In this document: piece by piece, positions 1,055 through 61,935 of the stretch
Numbering within the stretch: position 1 is the stretch's first letter
Layout of the letters: every line of letters begins with the position of its first letter
From: Mobula hypostoma
Taxonomy: Eukaryota
NCBI RefSeq assembly: GCF_963921235.1
Contig: NC_086097.1
Span: 112,656,001 to 112,720,000 of the forward strand
DNA: 64,000 bases
Direction: 5' to 3'
Notes under the pieces: generated by a model
What the model was told of the DNA's origin: nothing
Databases searched by the model: none
The model's input: the letters and a program-made list of their open reading frames with translations, nothing else
Made by a program: the position numbers and the translations under genes

Positions 1055-3161
1055 ACATATATGAGCAAATTTGTTATCTTATTTTTCCAATTCTTCTGAA
1101 ATTTTAAATTCCCATTTTAGCACACTCTTATATAAAAATAACTTGCAGTGTTAATTCTGTAATTAATTACGTACCATTTCTCTCTTTCAAGCAGATAGTA
1201 TGCACACCACAAGATTAACAAATATCGCTCTCATACTTATTAAAACTGACAATTTGGGTACCCTTATTCAAATTAATTCAACATCTAAGGATTAACTGAG
1301 AAAATACAACTTTGTTTTTGCTTTAATTTTATTATTGTCCTCAAAAGAAAGCAAATATTTTGAGCAAAATGGTGCAGAAACAAGATTTGAATCTGTATGT
1401 AAAAATCTATAAAAATTCCATTCAAGATGTAAGTGAATAGCACAACAAAAAAAATTCAAAAACTATCTCTGATTTCAATATCATAAACTGTACAAAAACT
1501 TGATTTTCAACAAAGAAGTTTACTTTCAAATAGCATATTACTTCATGGATATGCTGCTTGTGATTTCATAATAATGGCATTGCAACTGCTAACAAAACAT
1601 TTTGCCATGTGTTACAATATTGATAGGGTGTTATATATACATTGGTATATGTGTATTTATATATATAATCTATGACATCTTTCTCAAAATTACTTTGAGA
1701 TTATATTCAATAATATGGTGTTTTATGATAGTGTTTGTAAGTTGAAGAAGAGTTTAACCCATAGTGAAACAGAAAAGTGACCCCTCCTGGGTCAGACAGT
1801 GTCACTTCAGAGTTTAGAATGTGCTCTGGTTTTTCATTTGCCTTCTACATTGGAAAAGCATCTATTAATGTCAACCTCATGAAATGTTATTTTTCAACTT
1901 TTTCAATAAACATTCAATGACACTAGTTTAAAGGACAACTGTGTGCTATTAATCAAGATGGCCCTTGTAGCATTGCTTGCTTAAATGCAATATAATTTAA
2001 AAGTCCATGCACTATAAAGTCAAAATTCTGGGTTCTATTGCAGAGCTGTCTGAAAGATACATTAGTTGTGAAAATTACCCTAAGACACTGTAGGCACTGC
2101 TGTTGGTCAGTAGCTTTAAATATCTTCAGAGGACCTGTTCTGGGTCCAGCACGTACTCTAAGAGCTATTACAAAGAAGGCATGTCAGCACTTCTACTTCC
2201 TCAGAAGTTTGCAAAGATTCAGCATTGTACCTGAAACTTCTACAAATTTCTATAGAGGTATGGTGGAGTGTATACAGACTAGTTGCATCATGGCCTGGTA
2301 TGGAAATACCAATGCCTTTGAATGGAACAGCCACAGCTCATTGCAAGCAAAACCCTCCACTGTATTGAGCGCGTTTACAAGGAGCACTACCACAAGAAAG
2401 CAGTATCCAATCCATCATCAAAGACCTCTCTTCTCACTACTGCCACCGGGAAAGAGGTACAGCAGCCTTAGGTCCCCCACCAGCAGGTTCAGGAACAGTT
2501 ATTACTCCACAGCCCTCAGGCTACTGAACCAGAATCAATAACTTCTGGGTTCACTACCAGATAAGCTCAACACCTTCTATGTCTGGGAGAATATAACTAC
2601 AGCTGTGAAGATCCCTGCTGCCCCTGGTGACCCTGTGATCTCTGTCTTGGAGGCCAACGTCAGGTTGTCTTTCAGGAAGGTGAATCCTTGCAAGGCGGCA
2701 GGCCCCGAAAGAGTGCCTGATAAGGCTCTGAAAACTTGTGGCAATGAACTAATGGGAATATTCAAGGACATTTTCAATCTCTCACTGCTATGATCGGAAG
2801 TTCCCATCTGCTTCAAAAAGGCAACAACTATACCAGTGCCTAAGAAGAGTAATGTGAGTTGTTTTAATGACTTTCGCCCAGTAGCACTCACATCTACAGT
2901 GATGAAATGCTTTGAGAGGTTGGTCATAGCTAGAATCAACTTCTGCCTCAGCAAGGACCTGGACCCACTGCAATTTGCCTTTCGCCAGAATAGGTCTATG
3001 GCAGATGCAAACTCAATGGCGTTTCAATTGCCCTTAGATCACCTGGATAATACAAACACCTATGTCAGGATGCTGTTCATTGACATTTAAAACTAGCATT
3101 CGCACAGTCCTGATCGATAAGTTACAGAACCTGGGCCTCTGTACCTCCTTCTGCAATTGAA

Positions 3162-44914: not shown

Positions 44915-47375
44915 GCTTTGTTACTGGAAGGCCAGGGACACCTCATATTCTGTCTGGGTGGTCTCCAACCTGACAGCACGATCGTCGATTTCTCAACCTT
45001 TTGATAATATCTATTCCCCTCCCCCTCCTCTCTTTATCCATTCCCCATTCTGCTCCCCTCTTACCCCTTCTGTTCTCCTCACCTGCCTATCACCTTCCTC
45101 TGGTGCCCCTCCTCCTTCTCTTTACCATAGAAACCATAGAACCATAGAAACTACAGCACAGAAACAGGCCTTTTGGCCCTTCTTGGCTGTGCCGAACCAT
45201 TTTCTGCCTAGTCCCACTGACCTGCACACGGACCATATCCCTCCATACACCTCCCATCCATGTATCTGTCCAATTTATTCTTAAATGTTAAAAAAGAACC
45301 TGCATTTACCACTTCATCTGGCAGTTCATTTCATACTCCCACCACTCTCTGTGTGAAGAAGCCCCCCCTTAATGTTCCCTTTAAACTTTTCCCCCTCACC
45401 CTTAACCCATGTCCTCTGGTTTTTTTCTCCCCTTGTCTCAGTGGAAAAAGCCTGCTTGCATTCACTCTATCTATACCCATCATAATTTTATATACCTCTA
45501 TCAAATCTCCCCTCATTCTTCTACGCTCCAGGGAATAAAGTCCTAACCTATTCAACCTTTCTCTGTAACTGAGTTTCTCAAGTCCCGGCAACATCCTTGT
45601 AAACCTTCTCTGCACTCTTTCAACCTTATTTATATCCTTCCTGTAATTTGGTGACCAAAACTGAACACAATACTCCAGATTCGGCCTCACCAATGCCTTA
45701 TACAATCTTATCATAACATTCCAGCTCTTATACTCAATACTTTGATTAATAAAGGTCAATGTACCAAAAGCTCTCTTTACAACCCCATCTACCTGTGACA
45801 CCACTTTTAGGGAATTTTGTACCTGTATTTCCAGATCCCTCTGTTCCACTGCACTCCTCAGTGCCTTACCATTAACCCTGTATGTTCTACCTTGGTTTAT
45901 CCTTCCAACGTGCAATACCTCACACTTGTCTGTATTAAACTCCATCTGCCATTTTTCAGCCCATTTTTCCAGCTGGTCCAAGTCCCTCTGCAGGCTCTGA
46001 AAACCTTCCTCACTGTCTACTACACCTCCAATCTTTGTATCATCAGCAAATTTGCTGATCCAATTTACCACATTATCATCCAGATCATTGATATAGATGA
46101 CAAATAACAATGGATCCAGCACTGATCCCTGTGGCACACCACTAGTTATAGGCCTCCACTCGGAGAAGCAATTCTCTACTACCACTCTTTGGCTTCTTCC
46201 ATTGAGCCAATGTCTAATCCAATTTACCACCTCTCCATGTATACCTAGTGACTGAATTTTCCTAACTAACCTCCCATGCGGGACCTTGTCAAAGGCCTTA
46301 CTGAAGTCCATGTAGACAATATCCACTGCCTTCCCTTCATCCACTTTCCTGGTAACCTCCTCGAAAAACTCCAATAGATTGGTCAAACATGACCTACCAC
46401 ACACAAAGCCATGTTGACTCTCCCTAATAAGTCCCTGTCCATCCAAATGCTTGTAGATTCTGTCTCTTAGTACTCCCTCCAATAACTTACCTACTACCGA
46501 TGTTAAACTTACCGGCCTATAATTTCCCAGATTACTTTTCGATCCTTTTTTAAACAACGGAACAACATGAGCCACTCTCCAATCCTCTGGCACTTCACCT
46601 GTTGACAGCGACAGAAATATTTTAAATATTTCTGCCAGGGCCCCTGCAATTTCAACACTAGTCGCTTTCAAGGTCCAAGGGAACACCCTGTCAGGTCCCA
46701 GGGATTTATCCACTTTAATTTTCCTCAAGACAGCAAGGACCTCCTCCTTTCCAATCTGTACAGTTTCCATGATCTCACTACTTGTTTCCCTTAATTCCAT
46801 AGACTTCATGCCAGTTTCCTTAGTAAATACAGACGCAAAAAAACCGTTCACCAGCAACTTTGATGTATGTTGCTTGAATTTCCAGCATCTGCAGAATTCC
46901 TGTCGTTTGTATTTAAGATCTCCCCCATTTCCTTTGGTTCCGCACATAGCCGACCACTCTGATCTTCAAGAGGACCAATTTTATCCCTTACAATCCTTTT
47001 GCTCTTAATATACCTGTAAAAGCTCTTTGGACTTTCTCCCACAGTCCACTCTCCTCTCCTATCAGATTCCTTTTCTTCAGCCCTTTACCTTTCCACATAT
47101 CACTTCCCAGCTTCTCACTTCATTATCATTCCCCACCCACCTAGCTCCCCTCTCACCTGGCTTCACCTATCACTCCGTAGCTTGTATTCCTTCCTCTCTC
47201 CCTATGCTCTCGTCCTGCTTTCTTTCCCTTTCATTTCCAGTCCTGAATAAGGACCTTGGTCTGAAACCTCGACTCTTTATTCTTTTCCACAGATGCTGCC
47301 TGACCTGCTGAGTTCCTCCAGCATTTTGTTTGTGTTAATCTGGATTTCCAGCATCAGAAGAATCTCTTCTGTTTA
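44915..47375 (+). mobile_element. PLE pLTR split by a CR1 insertion (44915-45125 and 47028-47375)
   Basis: The two halves are collinear with other pLTRs. Variant hammerhead near 47239-47274 (core CTGAATA). Confidence 0.75.
45128..47025 (-). mobile_element. 5'-truncated young CR1 with near-intact RT
   Basis: Open frame 45331-46845: NYRPVSLTS, QHGF, YMDFSKAFDKV, GVPQGSVL, KFADD. Premature stop near the C-terminus. (tttctatg)-type tail. Confidence 0.97.
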
Positions 47376-50690: not shown

Positions 50691-52223
50691 TAGAAATGTT
50701 AGTAATGTCCATTCAGAGAAGACTGCTGAGGTGATATTATATAATATTATCATCGCCACAGAAGTTGCTCCTTCATGATGAAAATCTAAGTTAAAACCAG
50801 AAGCACATAAGGGCTTTAAATTCAAAGAATCAGCATTGGTCTACACAGCAAAAAAGCTGCAACACAACCTAGGTACACGCTATCATACTGCTGATTCAGT
50901 GCTGTTTATTGGCAGCTTGAGAGTTCAATGCCAGTGGGTTTTCAATCAGGTTGACAATACAACACAAAGCTGTGTAAACTATTAATTGGATCATTAATTA
51001 TTGTTGTTTTCACTAAAGTTTTGCTGAGAAGATTACAACAGCTTTTTTTTTGCTTTTTAAGTGCAGTGGCATTACTGCTCATTGTACATTTGTATAATAG
51101 CTCTAACTGGTCTTAGCAATTCATCATACAGCATTGTACAAAGACATAGTGGGCTAAATTGAATAGGGTTGGAAACAGTGGCTGGATATATGGTCAATTA
51201 ACCCATCTGATGCAGTGGAGGAAATAAAAATATGCGTGTTAGTCTCACAAGATGGGTTCAGTAACCAGCAAGTATTAGCCCCACTCTCTGCCTGTGCACA
51301 TCCACACACCCCGACTTCATGCATAAGTTAATTGAATTAGCTTATTAAGTCTTTGTTGGCACCTCTTAAAAGGGAGGAGGTTTGTGGTTGAAGTGGTAGT
51401 ATAAGTTATTCTATGTGTTTAAGAGCTTGCTGGAACCCCAGCGAATCACAAGTACGATTTCCTGATGTAGATTGATTTTACAAGCCTTAGTCAACAAGGA
51501 AAAAGGCTTTCCTCTCACAATGGACTAGGAAGCCATCTCAAGATTCAAGATTGTTCATTGTTATTTTTCAGTACGCAAGTGTAAAGGAAGGCAAAATATT
51601 TGTTACGTACTCCAGATCTAATGCAGCATAAAAAAATGCACAATAAGCTTAAAAAACACAAACAGCACATATAAATACATAAGATTAGCTTATATGTATA
51701 GACTGATTGTACGTACAAGTACATAAGTGATGCTAGGTATTGGACCACCTCTACATAAGGTGACCCTGACAGGAAATGATAAAGTACTGGTGGGAGGGTG
51801 GGGTGGTGTGGCGGGTTAATAGGAGGAGGAACACATAGTCAAGTCACAATATTAGAGATAAATTTCACAGGTTAAGCCTGTGACTTTGCATGTGATGTCA
51901 AGTTCAGTATCTATATCATCAAGTATTATCTCACAACAAACGTGCATCCAGATCAAACTCTATGGTGTGTAGTACATTCCCATCACTGACTACAAACTCT
52001 AACAATCATAGCCTAATATTGACAACCAAATGTACACCGTACCCTCAGATATTTGGCACTGCTCTAATCTTGTTAACTATACCTAATACAATTAAAATTC
52101 TGACAGCTCTTTAACCATTGTATGCATTTCTCATAGCCACATAACTTGTTACTTGTTACATACACCTGTTAGGGTGCATTCTCCAGATAACTTATAAGGT
52201 AACCGTAGCCTTCAGCCAGGAGC

Positions 52224-52284
52224 AGATGTCATCAGGTGGTTCCCAACCTTCACAGAGTGTTTCGACCCTTAACCACGACACTCT
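52224..52284 (-). ncRNA. Candidate rearranged hammerhead-like motif in the HERO 3' UTR (family A)
   Basis: agagtGTC^gtggtt-aagggtc-GAAAcactct-gtgaaggttggg-aaccac-CTGATGA-catct. Confidence 0.6.
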
Positions 52285-52371
52285 CCAGTTGGTGGGCCGG
52301 CAGTGGTCCATCTGCTCCTGGCTTCTAGCTCCCCTTCTCTCGCCTACTCCAAATCCAATAAGAGGCTCGTT

Positions 52372-52471
52372 CAACCAACATACATCAAAGTTGCTGGTGA
52401 ACGCAGCAGGCCAAGCAGCATCTATAGGAAGAGGCGCAGTCGACGTTTCAGGCCAAGACCCTCCTCTTTCT
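52372..52471 (-). mobile_element. ~100-bp PLE pLTR tip inserted in the HERO ORF end
   Basis: Near-identical to 882-968. Splits EEAE|RASYWIW. Confidence 0.85.
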
Positions 52472-53526
52472 CTGCCTCTTCCCCCATCCTAAGAGCTGCT
52501 TGTTTTTGCTCCTTTCGTCCAGGCCCAGATCTGACAACAACCGCCATGCTGATTTGGCTGAGAAACCTCTGCAGCCGACCTCCACAGGGAACAACCATGC
52601 CTGCCATCCCTTGTCTTTACACTCCTGCACTAAGGGCAGGTACTTCAAGGCCTTTCTCTCGTGGGCCTCTTCCCATTCCTCCTCCCACGGCAGAGTCAGC
52701 TCAACCAGAATTATTTTCCTGTCTTCAGTTGACCACGGCACAATGTCCGGGCGTAGGGTTGTGTGCACCACATCTGGGAACTGCAGCCCCCTTCCCACAT
52801 TGACCCTCATCTCCCAGGACCTGGCCGTTAGCCGCAGATTGGGCTTTGGTTACGAAAGGCCTAGCTCCCTCTTTGATGAAAGTGATGACCTTCCTCAAAT
52901 CTGTGCCAGCCGTCCTCTTCTTGCATCTCTCCCGCTCTAGTGTGTCAGCAAGAGCCAGAAGCACCTTATCATGGTGCCACCTATACCGTCCTTAAGTTAG
53001 AGCTGTTTTACACCCAGACGGTATATGAGCCAGTGTCTCCTTTTGACCACAGAGCTTACAGATCGGGTCCTCTCTCATCCCCCATGTGTACAGATGTAAT
53101 GGCGAAGGAAGGGTGTCATGCACGGTTTGCACAAGAAAGGAAATATGGAAGGGCTCCAGTCTCCATAACTCTGCCCATGAGGTCTTGCGCTTGGGCAGAT
53201 CCCATTTTGTCCAGGCACTCTGGGACCCTTGTTCCACTGCCTTTGACATCCGCTTCTCTTCCTCACGGATCCGTAATTCTGCCTGTACCATGTCTCGCCT
53301 GTTCCTTATGCTTGTGCTTCCTTACTGCTGGAAGTGAACTGAGCTGAGGCCTTGCCACCCTATGCAGGGGTTGCCGATGATATCTCGCATCTTCAGAGAA
53401 CACACTGCCTGCTCCACAGCTGCGTTGGCTGCCCACTTGCACCCAGATCTGGTTGTAACACCTGCAACACACATCAAAGTTGCTGGTGAACGCAGCAGGC
53501 CAAGCAGCATCTCTAGGAAGAGGTAC

Positions 53527-53562
53527 AGTCAACATTTCAGGCCGAGACCCTTCGTCAGGACT
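53527..53562 (-). ncRNA. Minimal hammerhead motif (CpG-decayed)
   Basis: agtc-CTGACGA-agg(gtctcgg)cct-GAAA-tgtt-gact. Confidence 0.7.
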
Positions 53563-55716
53563 AACTGAAGAAAGAGCTAGTAAGAGTCTTAGAAGGGGGA
53601 GGGGGAGGGGGAGATCCAAAATGATAGGAGAAGACAGGAGGGGGAGGGATGGAGCCAAGAACTGGACAGGTGATAGGCAAAAGGGATATGAGAGGATCAT
53701 GGGACAGGAGGCCCAGGGAGAAGGAAAAGGGGGAGGGGGGAAACCCAGAGGATGGGCAAGGGGTATAGTCAGAGGGCCAGAGGGAGAAATAGGAGAGTGA
53801 GAGAAGGAATGTGTGTATATAAATAACGGATGGGGGCCAGGGAACTTAAAATCATCGAAAAGTTTAAGAGCATGAGAAGCGTCACGAACATAGGTAGGAA
53901 GGGATTGAACAAGGGGGGATAAAACCCTGTCGAGGTATGCAGAAACAAGTTCGGTGGGGCAGGAGCAAGCTGAGGCAATAGGTCTGCCAGGACAGGCAGG
54001 TTTGTGGATCTTGGGTAGGAGGTAGAAACGGGCCCTGGGGTTCCCTGGCCCCCACCACTTTATTTTCACCATGGATGTCCAGACCCTATATACTTACATC
54101 CCCCATCAGGAAGGTCTCAAAGCTCTCCACTTCTTTTTGGATTCCAGACCTAATCGGTTCCCCTCTACACCACTCTGCTCCGTCTAGCGGAATTGGTCCT
54201 TACTCTTAATAATTTCTCCTTTGACTCCTCCTACTTCCTCCAAACTAAAGGTGTAGCTATGGGCACCCGCATGGGTCCGAGCTATGCCTGCCTTTTTGTT
54301 GGCTTTGTGGAACAATCTATGTTCCGTACCCATTCTGGTATCTGTCCCCCACTTTTCCTTCGCTACATCGACGACTGCATTGGCGCTGCTTCCTGCACGC
54401 ATGCTGAGCTCGTTGACTTTATCAACTTTGCCTCCAACTTTCACCCTGCCCTCAAGTTTACCTGGTCCATTTCCGACACCTCCCTCACCTTTCTAGATCT
54501 TTCTGTCTCTATCTCTGGAGACAGCTTATCTACTGATGTCTACTATAAGCCTACTGACTCTCACGGCTATCTGGACTATTCCTCTTCTCACCCTGTCTCT
54601 TGCAAAAATACCATCCCCTTCTCGCAATTCCTCCGTCTCCGCCGCATCTGCTCTCAGGATGAGGCTTTTCATTCCAGGACGAGGGAGATGTCCTCCTTTT
54701 TTAAAGAAAGGGGCTTCCCTTCCTCACTATCAACTCTGCTCTCAAACGCATCTCCCCCATTTCACGCACATCTGTCCTCACTCCATCCTCCCGCCACCCC
54801 ACTAGGAATTGGGTTCCATTGGTCCTCACCTACCACCCCACCAGCCTCCAGATCCAACATATTATTCTCCGTAACTTCCGCCACCTCCAACGGGATCCCA
54901 CCACCAAGCACACCTTTCCCTCACCCCCCCACCCCCCGCTTTCCACAAGGATCACTCCCTACGCGACTTCCTTGTCCATTCGTCCCCCCCATCTCTCCCC
55001 ACTGATCTCCCTCCTGGCACTTATCCTTGTAAGCGGAACAAGTGCTACACATGCCCTTACACTTCCTCCCTTACCACCATTCAGGGCCCAAGACAGTCCT
55101 TCCAGGTGAGGCGACACTTCACCTGTGAGTCGACTGGGGTGATATACTGCGTCCGGTGCTCCCGATGTGGCCTTCTATATACTGGCGAGACCCGACGCAG
55201 ACTGGGAGATCGTTTTGTTGAACACCTCCGCTCTGTCCACCAGAGAAAGCAGGATCTCCCGGTGGCCACACATTTTAATTCCACATCCCATCCCATTCTG
55301 ACATGTCCATCCACGGCCTCCTCTACTGTAAAGATGAAGCCACACTCAGGTTGGAGGTACAACACTTTATATTCCGTCTGGGTAGCCTCCAACCTGATGG
55401 CATGAACATTGACTTCTCTAACTTCCGCTTATGCCCTACCTCCCCCTCGTACCCCATCCATTATTTATATACACATATTCTTTCTCTCACTCTCCTTTTT
55501 CTCCCTCTGACTATACCCCTTGCCCATTCTCTGGGTTCCCCCCCTCCCCCTTTTCCTTCTCCCTGGGCCTCCTGTCCCATGATCCTCTCATATCCCTTTT
55601 GCCAATCACCTGTCCAGCTCTTGGCTCCATCCCTCCCCCTCCTGTCTTCTCCTATCATTTTGGATCTCCCCCTCCCCCTCCCACTTTTAAATCTCTTACT
55701 AGCCTTTTCTTCAGTT

Positions 55717-55752
55717 AGTCCTGATGAAGGGTCCCGGCCTGAAACGTCGACT
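55717..55752 (+). ncRNA. Minimal type-I hammerhead ribozyme, intact core
   Basis: agtc-CTGATGA-agg(gtcccgg)cct-GAAAC-GTC^-gact. Predicted cut after 55748. Confidence 0.87.
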
Positions 55753-55993
55753 GTACCTCTTCCTAGAGATGCTGCCTGGCCTGCTGCATTCACCAGCAAA
55801 CCTTGATGTGTGTTGCTTGAATTTCCAGCATTTGCAGAATTCCTCGTGTTTGGTTGTAACACCTGCTTGCTTTACCAAGACATCATTAGAATCTCTCAAG
55901 CTTAATAAGGCTCTGCATTTTGCCACCTTGAATTCCTCCACAACAGATGACAGCGGAAACAGCAGTTGCCCAAATTGAATATAGAGATTACCT

Positions 55994-61589: not shown

Positions 61590-61935
61590 CCATTTACATC
61601 TACGACCAGTCTATTGAAGAAGATGGGGGTGAGGGATCACTCCCTCCAACAAGCAATCAAGTCCTTGTCAAACGCAGCAGAAGAAAGCAGCAATTGGATT
61701 TGGGTTAAAAGGAAAGACAACAACTGGGCTGCAAGATGAAGACAGGAGGGTATGGAACTGAGGGGGTTGTACCTGGGAGGCCAGGTAGCACCGTTGAGCC
61801 CTCTGGAGATGTCGTGGGCTTATCAATGAAACGTCAAAGAAGGAAGGTGCCCACCTGATGACCCCAATGACGTACCTACCCTCCCTCCTTGTCACCACTC
61901 CAAGCCCACTGCCAACATTGAGAGTGCCAACTTAC
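61590..61935 (+). mobile_element. 3' tip of a second HERO-type family
   Basis: AIKSLSNAAEESSNWIWVKRKDNNWAAR* (stop near 61739) parallels GEEAERASYWIWSRR of the 52-kb element. Shares the 3' UTR motif. Confidence 0.75.
61808..61865 (+). ncRNA. Candidate rearranged hammerhead-like motif in the HERO 3' UTR (family B)
   Basis: gatGTC^gtgggc-ttatcaat-GAAAcgtc-aaagaaggaaggt-gcccac-CTGATGA-cccc. Confidence 0.55.

Follow-up and report, generated by a model that had tools for sequence, protein, structure and literature searches.

The locus and its element

The window, by which we mean the whole 64,000-nt stretch of Mobula hypostoma DNA analysed here, carries on its minus strand a dead, 5′-truncated copy of a HERO-like retrotransposon. 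The copy occupies 52145-53465 and 55851-55989, and it is interrupted by 2.4 kb of foreign DNA (53466-55850) and by ~98 nt (52373-52470).

52145..55989, minus strand: dead 5′-truncated HERO-like copy, from blastn and tblastn against a long copy and the C-terminal protein
52992-53321, minus strand: zf-RVT domain match in the window copy
52145..52215, minus strand: distal 3′ UTR; the element terminates here with two TAACAAG repeats

Similarity among 30 aligned copies stops after the TAACAAG repeats, where the flanks differ; at one locus (L011) it stops ~25 nt earlier. Candidate copies of the 3′ region number at least 1,308 in the 3.48 Gb genome, and the 39 other copies that were scored are 88-90% identical to the window copy. 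The core of the motif described below is intact in the 30 aligned copies, 29 of which have an extra 13-14 nt, absent from the window copy, that complete a hairpin holding the ORF stop codon.

The element encodes a single ORF with a central reverse transcriptase (RT; RVT_1) and a zf-RVT zinc-binding region, and intact relatives are 1118-1180 aa long (ORFs 1118 and 1180); a CCHC knuckle and PD..E.K-type restriction-like endonuclease motifs were read by eye at the C-terminus. Its best solved relatives are R2 proteins, its named homologues come from fishes, amphioxus and bivalves, and the R2 superfamily is represented in bivalves only by elements classed as Hero, according to one survey (PMC10294476). 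On these grounds of domain layout, relatives, homologues and the bivalve survey, the HERO label is plausible. The initial annotation put the motif in a HERO 3′ UTR, which is supported in that the motif lies across the ORF end and 3′ UTR of an R2-superfamily element that has regions for RT, zinc finger and restriction-like endonuclease.

The 2.4-kb insertion that splits the HERO copy (window 53466-55850) is GC-rich, with strong negative GC skew; its plus-strand ORF 54875-55405 gives a weak GIY-YIG match (E 0.0064, below the Pfam cut-off), and the insertion may be a Penelope-like fragment. Elsewhere in the window, 45532-46788 on the minus strand has 22% tblastn identity to the RT region of the HERO-like protein (E 1e-13) and is probably another non-LTR element. 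Locus L032 was rejected as a full-length copy: its positions 2100-2730 are an unrelated repeat of ~510 bp, with 10,323 first-look candidates in the genome, which abuts a HERO copy truncated at 3051.

A hammerhead core in non-cyclic order

The strands of the motif are listed below in 5′ to 3′ order along the minus strand, followed by a second motif of the window and the hairpin of an intact copy.

52309..52321, minus strand: helix A 5′ strand, CCAGGAGCAGAUG; partner of 52216-52228
52299..52308, minus strand: remnant of hairpin HP; the window copy is without 13 nt found in other copies
52294..52298, minus strand: helix B 5′ strand (GGCCC); acts as stem II strand 10.x
52288..52292, minus strand: helix P4 5′ strand (CCAAC); helix 4 of the covariation test
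52277..52284, minus strand: stem III 3′ strand (16.x, AGAGUGU) and C17, with C17 at 52277
52271..52276, minus strand: stem I 5′ strand (1.x, GUGGUU); a 7-nt spacer is next
52269-52270, minus strand: conserved AA preceding the helix B 3′ strand (alignment columns 110-111, A in 51/61 and 41/62)
52264..52268, minus strand: helix B 3′ strand (11.x, GGGUC); abuts the 5′ side of GAAA
52263-52260, minus strand: GAAA, that is G12 A13 A14, then A15.1
52254..52263, minus strand: G12 A13 A14 and the stem III 5′ strand (15.x, ACACUCU); a 12-nt spacer is next
52248..52253, minus strand: linker GUGAAG, 6 nt, from stem III to P4; one side of an asymmetric internal loop
52243..52247, minus strand: helix P4 3′ strand (GUUGG); helix 4 of the covariation test
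52236..52241, minus strand: stem I 3′ strand (2.x, AACCAC); adjoins CUGAUGA
52229..52235, minus strand: CUGAUGA (C3-A9), with core conservation
52216..52228, minus strand: helix A 3′ strand, CAUCUGCUCCUGG; immediately 3′ of A9
61752..61873, plus strand: second motif of like architecture (24.5 bits, E 0.0013, covariance model)
L019:1533-1556: hairpin HP in an intact copy

The blocks follow one another on the minus strand of the window as cleavage site, GAAA and CUGAUGA, with a stem I of 6 bp and a stem III of 7 bp in register, and the scissile bond is predicted between 52277 and 52276. The initial annotation had proposed these strands, this register and both stems, including the A15.1-U16.1 pair, and the window sequence agrees with it exactly; the non-cyclic order that it called a-c-b, which is S-G-C in the published nomenclature, recurs as site, GAAA and CUGANGA in every instance that we found. 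Outside this core, helix A is a 13-bp perfect inverted repeat (52228-52216 versus 52321-52309) that dominates the MFE and centroid folds, and its 5′ strand is still coding sequence in intact copies. The first G of the helix B 5′ strand pairs with C11.1. With its missing 13 nt the window copy has lost both the ORF stop codon (CAG UGA) and the 5′ arm of hairpin HP. The second motif has its core at 61808-61861 on the plus strand, with GUC, GAAA and CUGAUGA in register; it belongs to a copy, from another HERO lineage, of which nothing remains but the 3′ UTR and the final ~25 codons.

Conservation and covariation

We collected 79 related loci from metagenome contigs by a protein-alignment scan (34-77% identity over the C-terminal 420 aa), and searched them with a strict descriptor (a U-H site, a stem I of no fewer than 4 uninterrupted bp adjoining CUGANGA, and GAAA with at least 4 bp of stem III) and with a covariance model built from 23 sequences, from which helices B and I were left out. 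The descriptor matches 43 of the 79 loci. In the window it finds the reported motif, the core at 61808-61861 (+) and two weak 4-bp matches, and 20 shuffles gave 0-1. The covariance model gives 63 matches, all on the coding strand, and one more with filters off; by this model the motif is present in 57 of the 79 loci. Among the 22 loci without it, 14 extend for less than 150 nt beyond the projected end of the ORF and another two for no more than 200 nt, one has half a motif and one is truncated; the remaining four related lineages (L050, L091, L102 and L107) have 3′ sequence present and no motif, which counts against the reading favoured below. These four are more distant relatives, at 36-38% identity, and two of them (L091 and L102) have repeated units containing GGGAUUAA in place of the motif.

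The core is nearly invariant. In CUGANGA, C3 is kept in 59/61 sequences and U4, G5, A6, G8 and A9 in 61/61 each, while N7 is free (U 37, C 12, A 9, G 3). G12 is kept in 60/62, A13 in 62/62, A14 in 61/62, A15.1 in 62/62 and U16.1 in 61/62; position 17 is C in 23, U in 21, A in 17 and G in one, so that H stands in 61/62. Conservation of CUGANGA, GAAA and U-H among lineages was a point on which the initial annotation had staked its proposal, and covariation of stems I and III was the test that it had named; both are borne out.

The fold spans ~120 nt and comprises six covarying helices, in which 89.8% of 2324 cells are paired, compared with 59.1% in shuffled and 38-41% in slid controls; the covariation score is 0.642 versus 0.175 shuffled, and none of 500 shuffles scored as high. 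Pairs with both sides changed occur in all six helices, including B and I, to which the alignment was not fitted since they lie outside the covariance model. Helix A has 12 pairs, all with both-side changes (87.3% of cells paired); hairpin HP has 7 pairs (91.6%); helix B and P4 have 5 pairs each, with both-side changes in 4/5 of either (91.7% and 95.3%, respectively); and stem I has both-side changes in 6/6 pairs (94.9%). In stem III 82.7% of cells are paired and 6/7 pairs are supported; the outermost seventh is unpaired in 47/58 and is not a real pair.

These data dispose of the idea that the resemblance to a hammerhead arose by chance, or that the sequence is a box C/D-like (k-turn) element. 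The sole Rfam match over the motif is indeed the archaeal C/D RNA sR10, with 10.5 bits where the gathering score is 45 (E 8.3); no Rfam family reaches its gathering score in the whole window, and no hammerhead family appears at E up to 10 around the motif. The hammerhead models of Rfam assume cyclic strand order, however, and therefore miss a non-cyclic one. Over 257 kb of related loci the strict descriptor matches 47 times in sense and twice in antisense, and 0-2 times in each of ten block-shuffles; together with conservation and covariation over 63 sequences, this refutes the explanation and leaves it next to no probability. The RNA and its permuted hammerhead core are real, under selection and not a product of chance.

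A four-way junction in place of stem II

A classical stem II, formed between the 5 nt before GAAA and the 5 nt after CUGANGA, was tried and rejected: 46.6% of its cells are paired in 63 sequences versus 43.4% when shuffled, and the classical 10.1-11.1 pair forms in just 3/58. The weak stem II of the initial annotation is thus pairing at background level. Instead, the 5 nt preceding GAAA pair with an upstream strand to form helix B, and the strand after A9 pairs still further upstream than the helix B 5′ strand to form helix A. The first base of the helix B 5′ strand (column 61) is G in 58/62, and the core-adjacent G-C pair is thereby recreated.

The junction is tightly built. No nucleotide separates A9 from helix A in 58/59, and helix A, hairpin HP and helix B are consecutive, with 0 nt between them in nearly every row, so that a perfect four-way junction stands in place of stem II. 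The other linkers are equally constant: B and P4 are 1 nt apart in 59/62, P4 and stem III 2-3 nt, and the return from stem III to P4 takes 6 nt in 53/61 and contains a conserved UGA (columns 128-130: U 38/57, G 50/56, A 52/56); P4 thus extends stem III across a fixed internal loop. From this arrangement we infer that helix B takes the place of stem II in stacking on the core, and that the A9 strand crosses to the stack of helix A and hairpin. The backbone break between A9 and the G equivalent to 10.1 has no tested hammerhead precedent, which counts against catalysis.

The loop of hairpin HP has a self-complementary run of at least 6 nt in 34/60 rows, compared with 15% of shuffled loops, and the run alternates among UGAUCA, UGGCCA and UCAUGA yet remains palindromic. 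This is the pattern that a kissing-loop RNA dimerisation site would show, although a palindrome of the GACGUC type may simply extend the hairpin. Such loops, and the tandem units described below, which are common, would suit a hammerhead that acts between molecules, its active site formed by two RNAs or two units of a multimer as in the small Penelope hammerheads. We consider this improbable: a single molecule provides every strand of the fold, and the six helices covary in cis with short fixed linkers. The initial annotation held that the a-c-b order forces either a pseudoknot or a dimer; the pseudoknot stands, and the dimer is not needed to complete the fold.

Relation to published permuted hammerheads

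Natural non-circular permutations of the hammerhead blocks S, G and C were described by Eckert, Friedrich, Weinberg and Weinberg (NAR 2023, PMC10085705), so that the initial annotation was correct that rearranged hammerheads had been reported, in another form and another host. Type SGC of that paper (the HRIMA-1 motif and variants) covaries and cleaves in vitro, slowly, at the predicted site, and the RNAs come from metatranscriptome contigs bearing hairpin ribozymes. Type SGC and the HERO RNA are alike in their core, in S-G-C block order, in a pseudoknotted core, and in a short A-rich linker from stem I to the 5-nt strand abutting GAAA (PMC10085705).

They differ in three respects. The strands before GAAA and after CUGAnGA pair with each other in type SGC, whereas in HERO both pair upstream, in a four-way junction; the accessory helix of type SGC ties the far sides of stems I and II, whereas P4 of HERO pairs the segment preceding stem III with the spacer that follows it; and the hosts are animal retrotransposons for the HERO RNA versus metatranscriptome contigs for type SGC. 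PMC10085705 assumes that blocks cannot be interrupted. In HERO, block C has a break between A9 and the strand of stem II, contrary to this assumption.

The main text and supplement of PMC10085705 name no retrotransposon host, and the supplement contains none of three locus accession prefixes and none of five HERO-typical strings. A November 2026 paper (PMC13725137) does not include HERO among the links between ribozymes and retrotransposons of which its authors know, and no description of a HERO hammerhead was found in the literature searched, of which subscription journals and bioRxiv supplements were not part. With regard to these sources, we regard the interrupted CUGAnGA block, the four-way junction and the retrotransposon host as new, and the S-G-C order as known (PMC10085705).

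Position at the ORF end and tandem units

The motif starts between −30 and +22 nt from the ORF stop in 39/42 rows, and the stop codon lies inside the hairpin in the family of the window copy and in 10/42 rows. With the motif at this position, terminating ribosomes must unfold helix A and the hairpin, which could gate cleavage or help the new protein to capture its RNA.

At least 18 of 29 long copies (unbiased sample) have a partial upstream unit, its tail joined to the 5′ UTR, and 8/29 have a complete upstream motif. The upstream unit is variably truncated, and the junction runs from 3′ UTR through the TAACAAG tail to 5′ UTR (loci L126-L154, L017 and L186-L213). Five of the 29 start at the junction of tail and 5′ UTR or up to ~20 nt before it, two of them at the same base; several contigs of 3.7-3.9 kb wrap around via the motif, and 5′ UTR-type sequence lies downstream of the motif in 11/49 instances. 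These partial upstream units suggest 5′ processing of multimeric transcripts.

A repeated 5′ UTR module, CCAGUGAC..CAGGAAAGACUGG, occurs 49-128 nt past the motif at L037, L038, L046, L047, L055 and other loci. It is common to the 5′ UTR of the element in its own genome (L154:1384-1500) and to metagenome lineages ~50% identical in protein.

The ends of inserted copies bear on whether the RNA is cut. Position 1.1, the first nucleotide after the predicted cleavage site, begins none of 40 copies chosen with a 3′ fragment, and the templates of these insertions were therefore uncut in their own 3′ UTR. Two of the 29 long copies do start at 1.1, where ~0.12 would be expected if 25 ends were uniform over a 420-nt stretch, and the upstream site is read through in 9/29 of this first sample. 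A second sample, of 28 new tandem-bearing copies, has none that starts exactly at 1.1, and its ends scatter at +2, −4, −8 and −28 to −41. Such scatter could come from cleavage, or equally from an RT that stalls on a stable fold, and the copy ends give hints only. One contig (L061) ends exactly at C17 and another (L039) starts at U1.2, which may be coincidence or an echo of cleaved RNA. RNA runs present as assembled contigs, of which four of 24 were compared with a tandem-bearing copy, gave no joints and no pile-up of ends.

Discussion

Our analysis leads us to propose, with somewhat more confidence than doubt, that the S-G-C hammerhead-core RNA that spans the ORF end and 3′ UTR of HERO self-cleaves, and that cleavage is useful on multimeric or read-through transcripts. 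Catalysis itself is likely, judging from precedent and from the pattern of conservation, and its role would most likely be 5′ processing of such transcripts, possibly combined with recognition by the RT. Hammerhead chemistry would cut the RNA after position 17 (52277|52276). The useful substrate would be a multimer or a read-through transcript, on which a cut at the upstream partial unit would remove the leader and leave the downstream unit with a defined 5′ end, in parallel with the HDV-like ribozyme in R2 and the hammerheads in Penelope elements. In its own 3′ UTR the fold would mostly have to stay uncut, perhaps masked by terminating ribosomes or bound RT, or be religated; cutting there would sever the ORF from the priming end, which counts against the proposal.

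The main rival to self-cleavage is a fold for protein recognition only: a handle by which the RT would take its own transcript for target-primed reverse transcription (TPRT), the core being architectural and uncut in vivo. The 3′ UTR of R2 contains a pseudoknotted element to which R2 proteins bind and which is both necessary and sufficient for TPRT (PMC12222951), and R2 proteins are the closest solved relatives of the HERO ORF. The RT-binding pseudoknot of R2Tg resembles the HERO RNA in being pseudoknotted, in the R2 superfamily and near the priming end; no hammerhead core is reported for it (PMC12222951), and protein binding by HERO is putative. A position adjoining the stop codon would suit capture in cis, the fixed linkers and extra helices exceed what a minimal ribozyme needs, and none of the 40 inserted copies came from a cut 3′ UTR. 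On the other side, recognition would hardly explain why 13 core nucleotides are kept over 60 lineages while N7 is free and only G is excluded at position 17; moreover RNAs of equal block order cleave (PMC10085705). We give recognition without cutting roughly one chance in four by this analysis, noting that the two roles are not mutually exclusive.

A more far-reaching possibility, which we think rather unlikely, is that HERO propagates by ribozyme-processed unit-length RNAs whose ends are religated, or held as a nicked circle, with the RT running around and the loop palindrome serving to dimerise. On that account the ends of the unit-length RNA would be the two halves of a split hammerhead, the halves would rejoin through helices A, B, P4 and III (~28 bp), and reverse transcription around the circle would yield insertions with a partial unit before a full one. 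If that holds, HERO would be the first case of a circular RNA stage, like that of viroids or retrozymes, in an autonomous non-LTR retrotransposon.

Self-cleavage, the reading that we prefer, also has relatives among other mobile elements. Minimal hammerheads reportedly occur in the terminal repeats of Penelope-like elements (work attributed to Cervera and de la Pena, 2014, and Lunse et al., 2017). Penelope-like elements and HERO are alike in having a hammerhead core and full-length copies preceded by a partial upstream copy, which in both places a ribozyme upstream of the coding unit, and the pseudo-LTR layout of Penelope resembles the upstream-unit arrangement of HERO. They differ in that Penelope hammerheads are classical type I, dimeric and found in elements with a GIY-YIG nuclease, whereas in HERO the order is permuted, the fold is monomeric and the host element has a restriction-like endonuclease.

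R2 and other non-LTR elements reportedly carry HDV-like ribozymes at their 5′ ends (Eickbush and Eickbush, 2010; Ruminski et al., 2011). The HDV-like ribozyme of R2 shares with HERO a self-cleaving RNA, inferred in the case of HERO, and the retrotransposon superfamily; it belongs to another class and sits at the 5′ end, whereas the HERO motif sits at the ORF end and attains a 5′ position only through tandem copies. The HDV-like ribozyme processes a co-transcript and has also been connected with translation initiation (PMC13725137).

In conclusion, non-circular ribozyme permutations had been described once, in 2023, from environmental RNA with unknown hosts, and one is now placed in a widespread family of animal retrotransposons; HERO thereby gives the S-G-C topology a genetic host and a biological setting in which it can be tested. 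The finding indicates that a four-way junction can split hammerhead blocks regarded as uninterruptible. Such split ribozymes escape covariance models of the known types, and the space in which ribozymes have to be sought widens accordingly. If it cleaves, the motif would add a third ribozyme class to the retrotransposon toolkit, after the HDV-like ribozyme and the classical hammerhead, and it lies in the R2 superfamily, which is now being engineered for gene insertion. Through its overlap with the stop codon and its recurrence upstream of full-length copies, an element of ~120 nt may link translation termination, RT capture and RNA processing.
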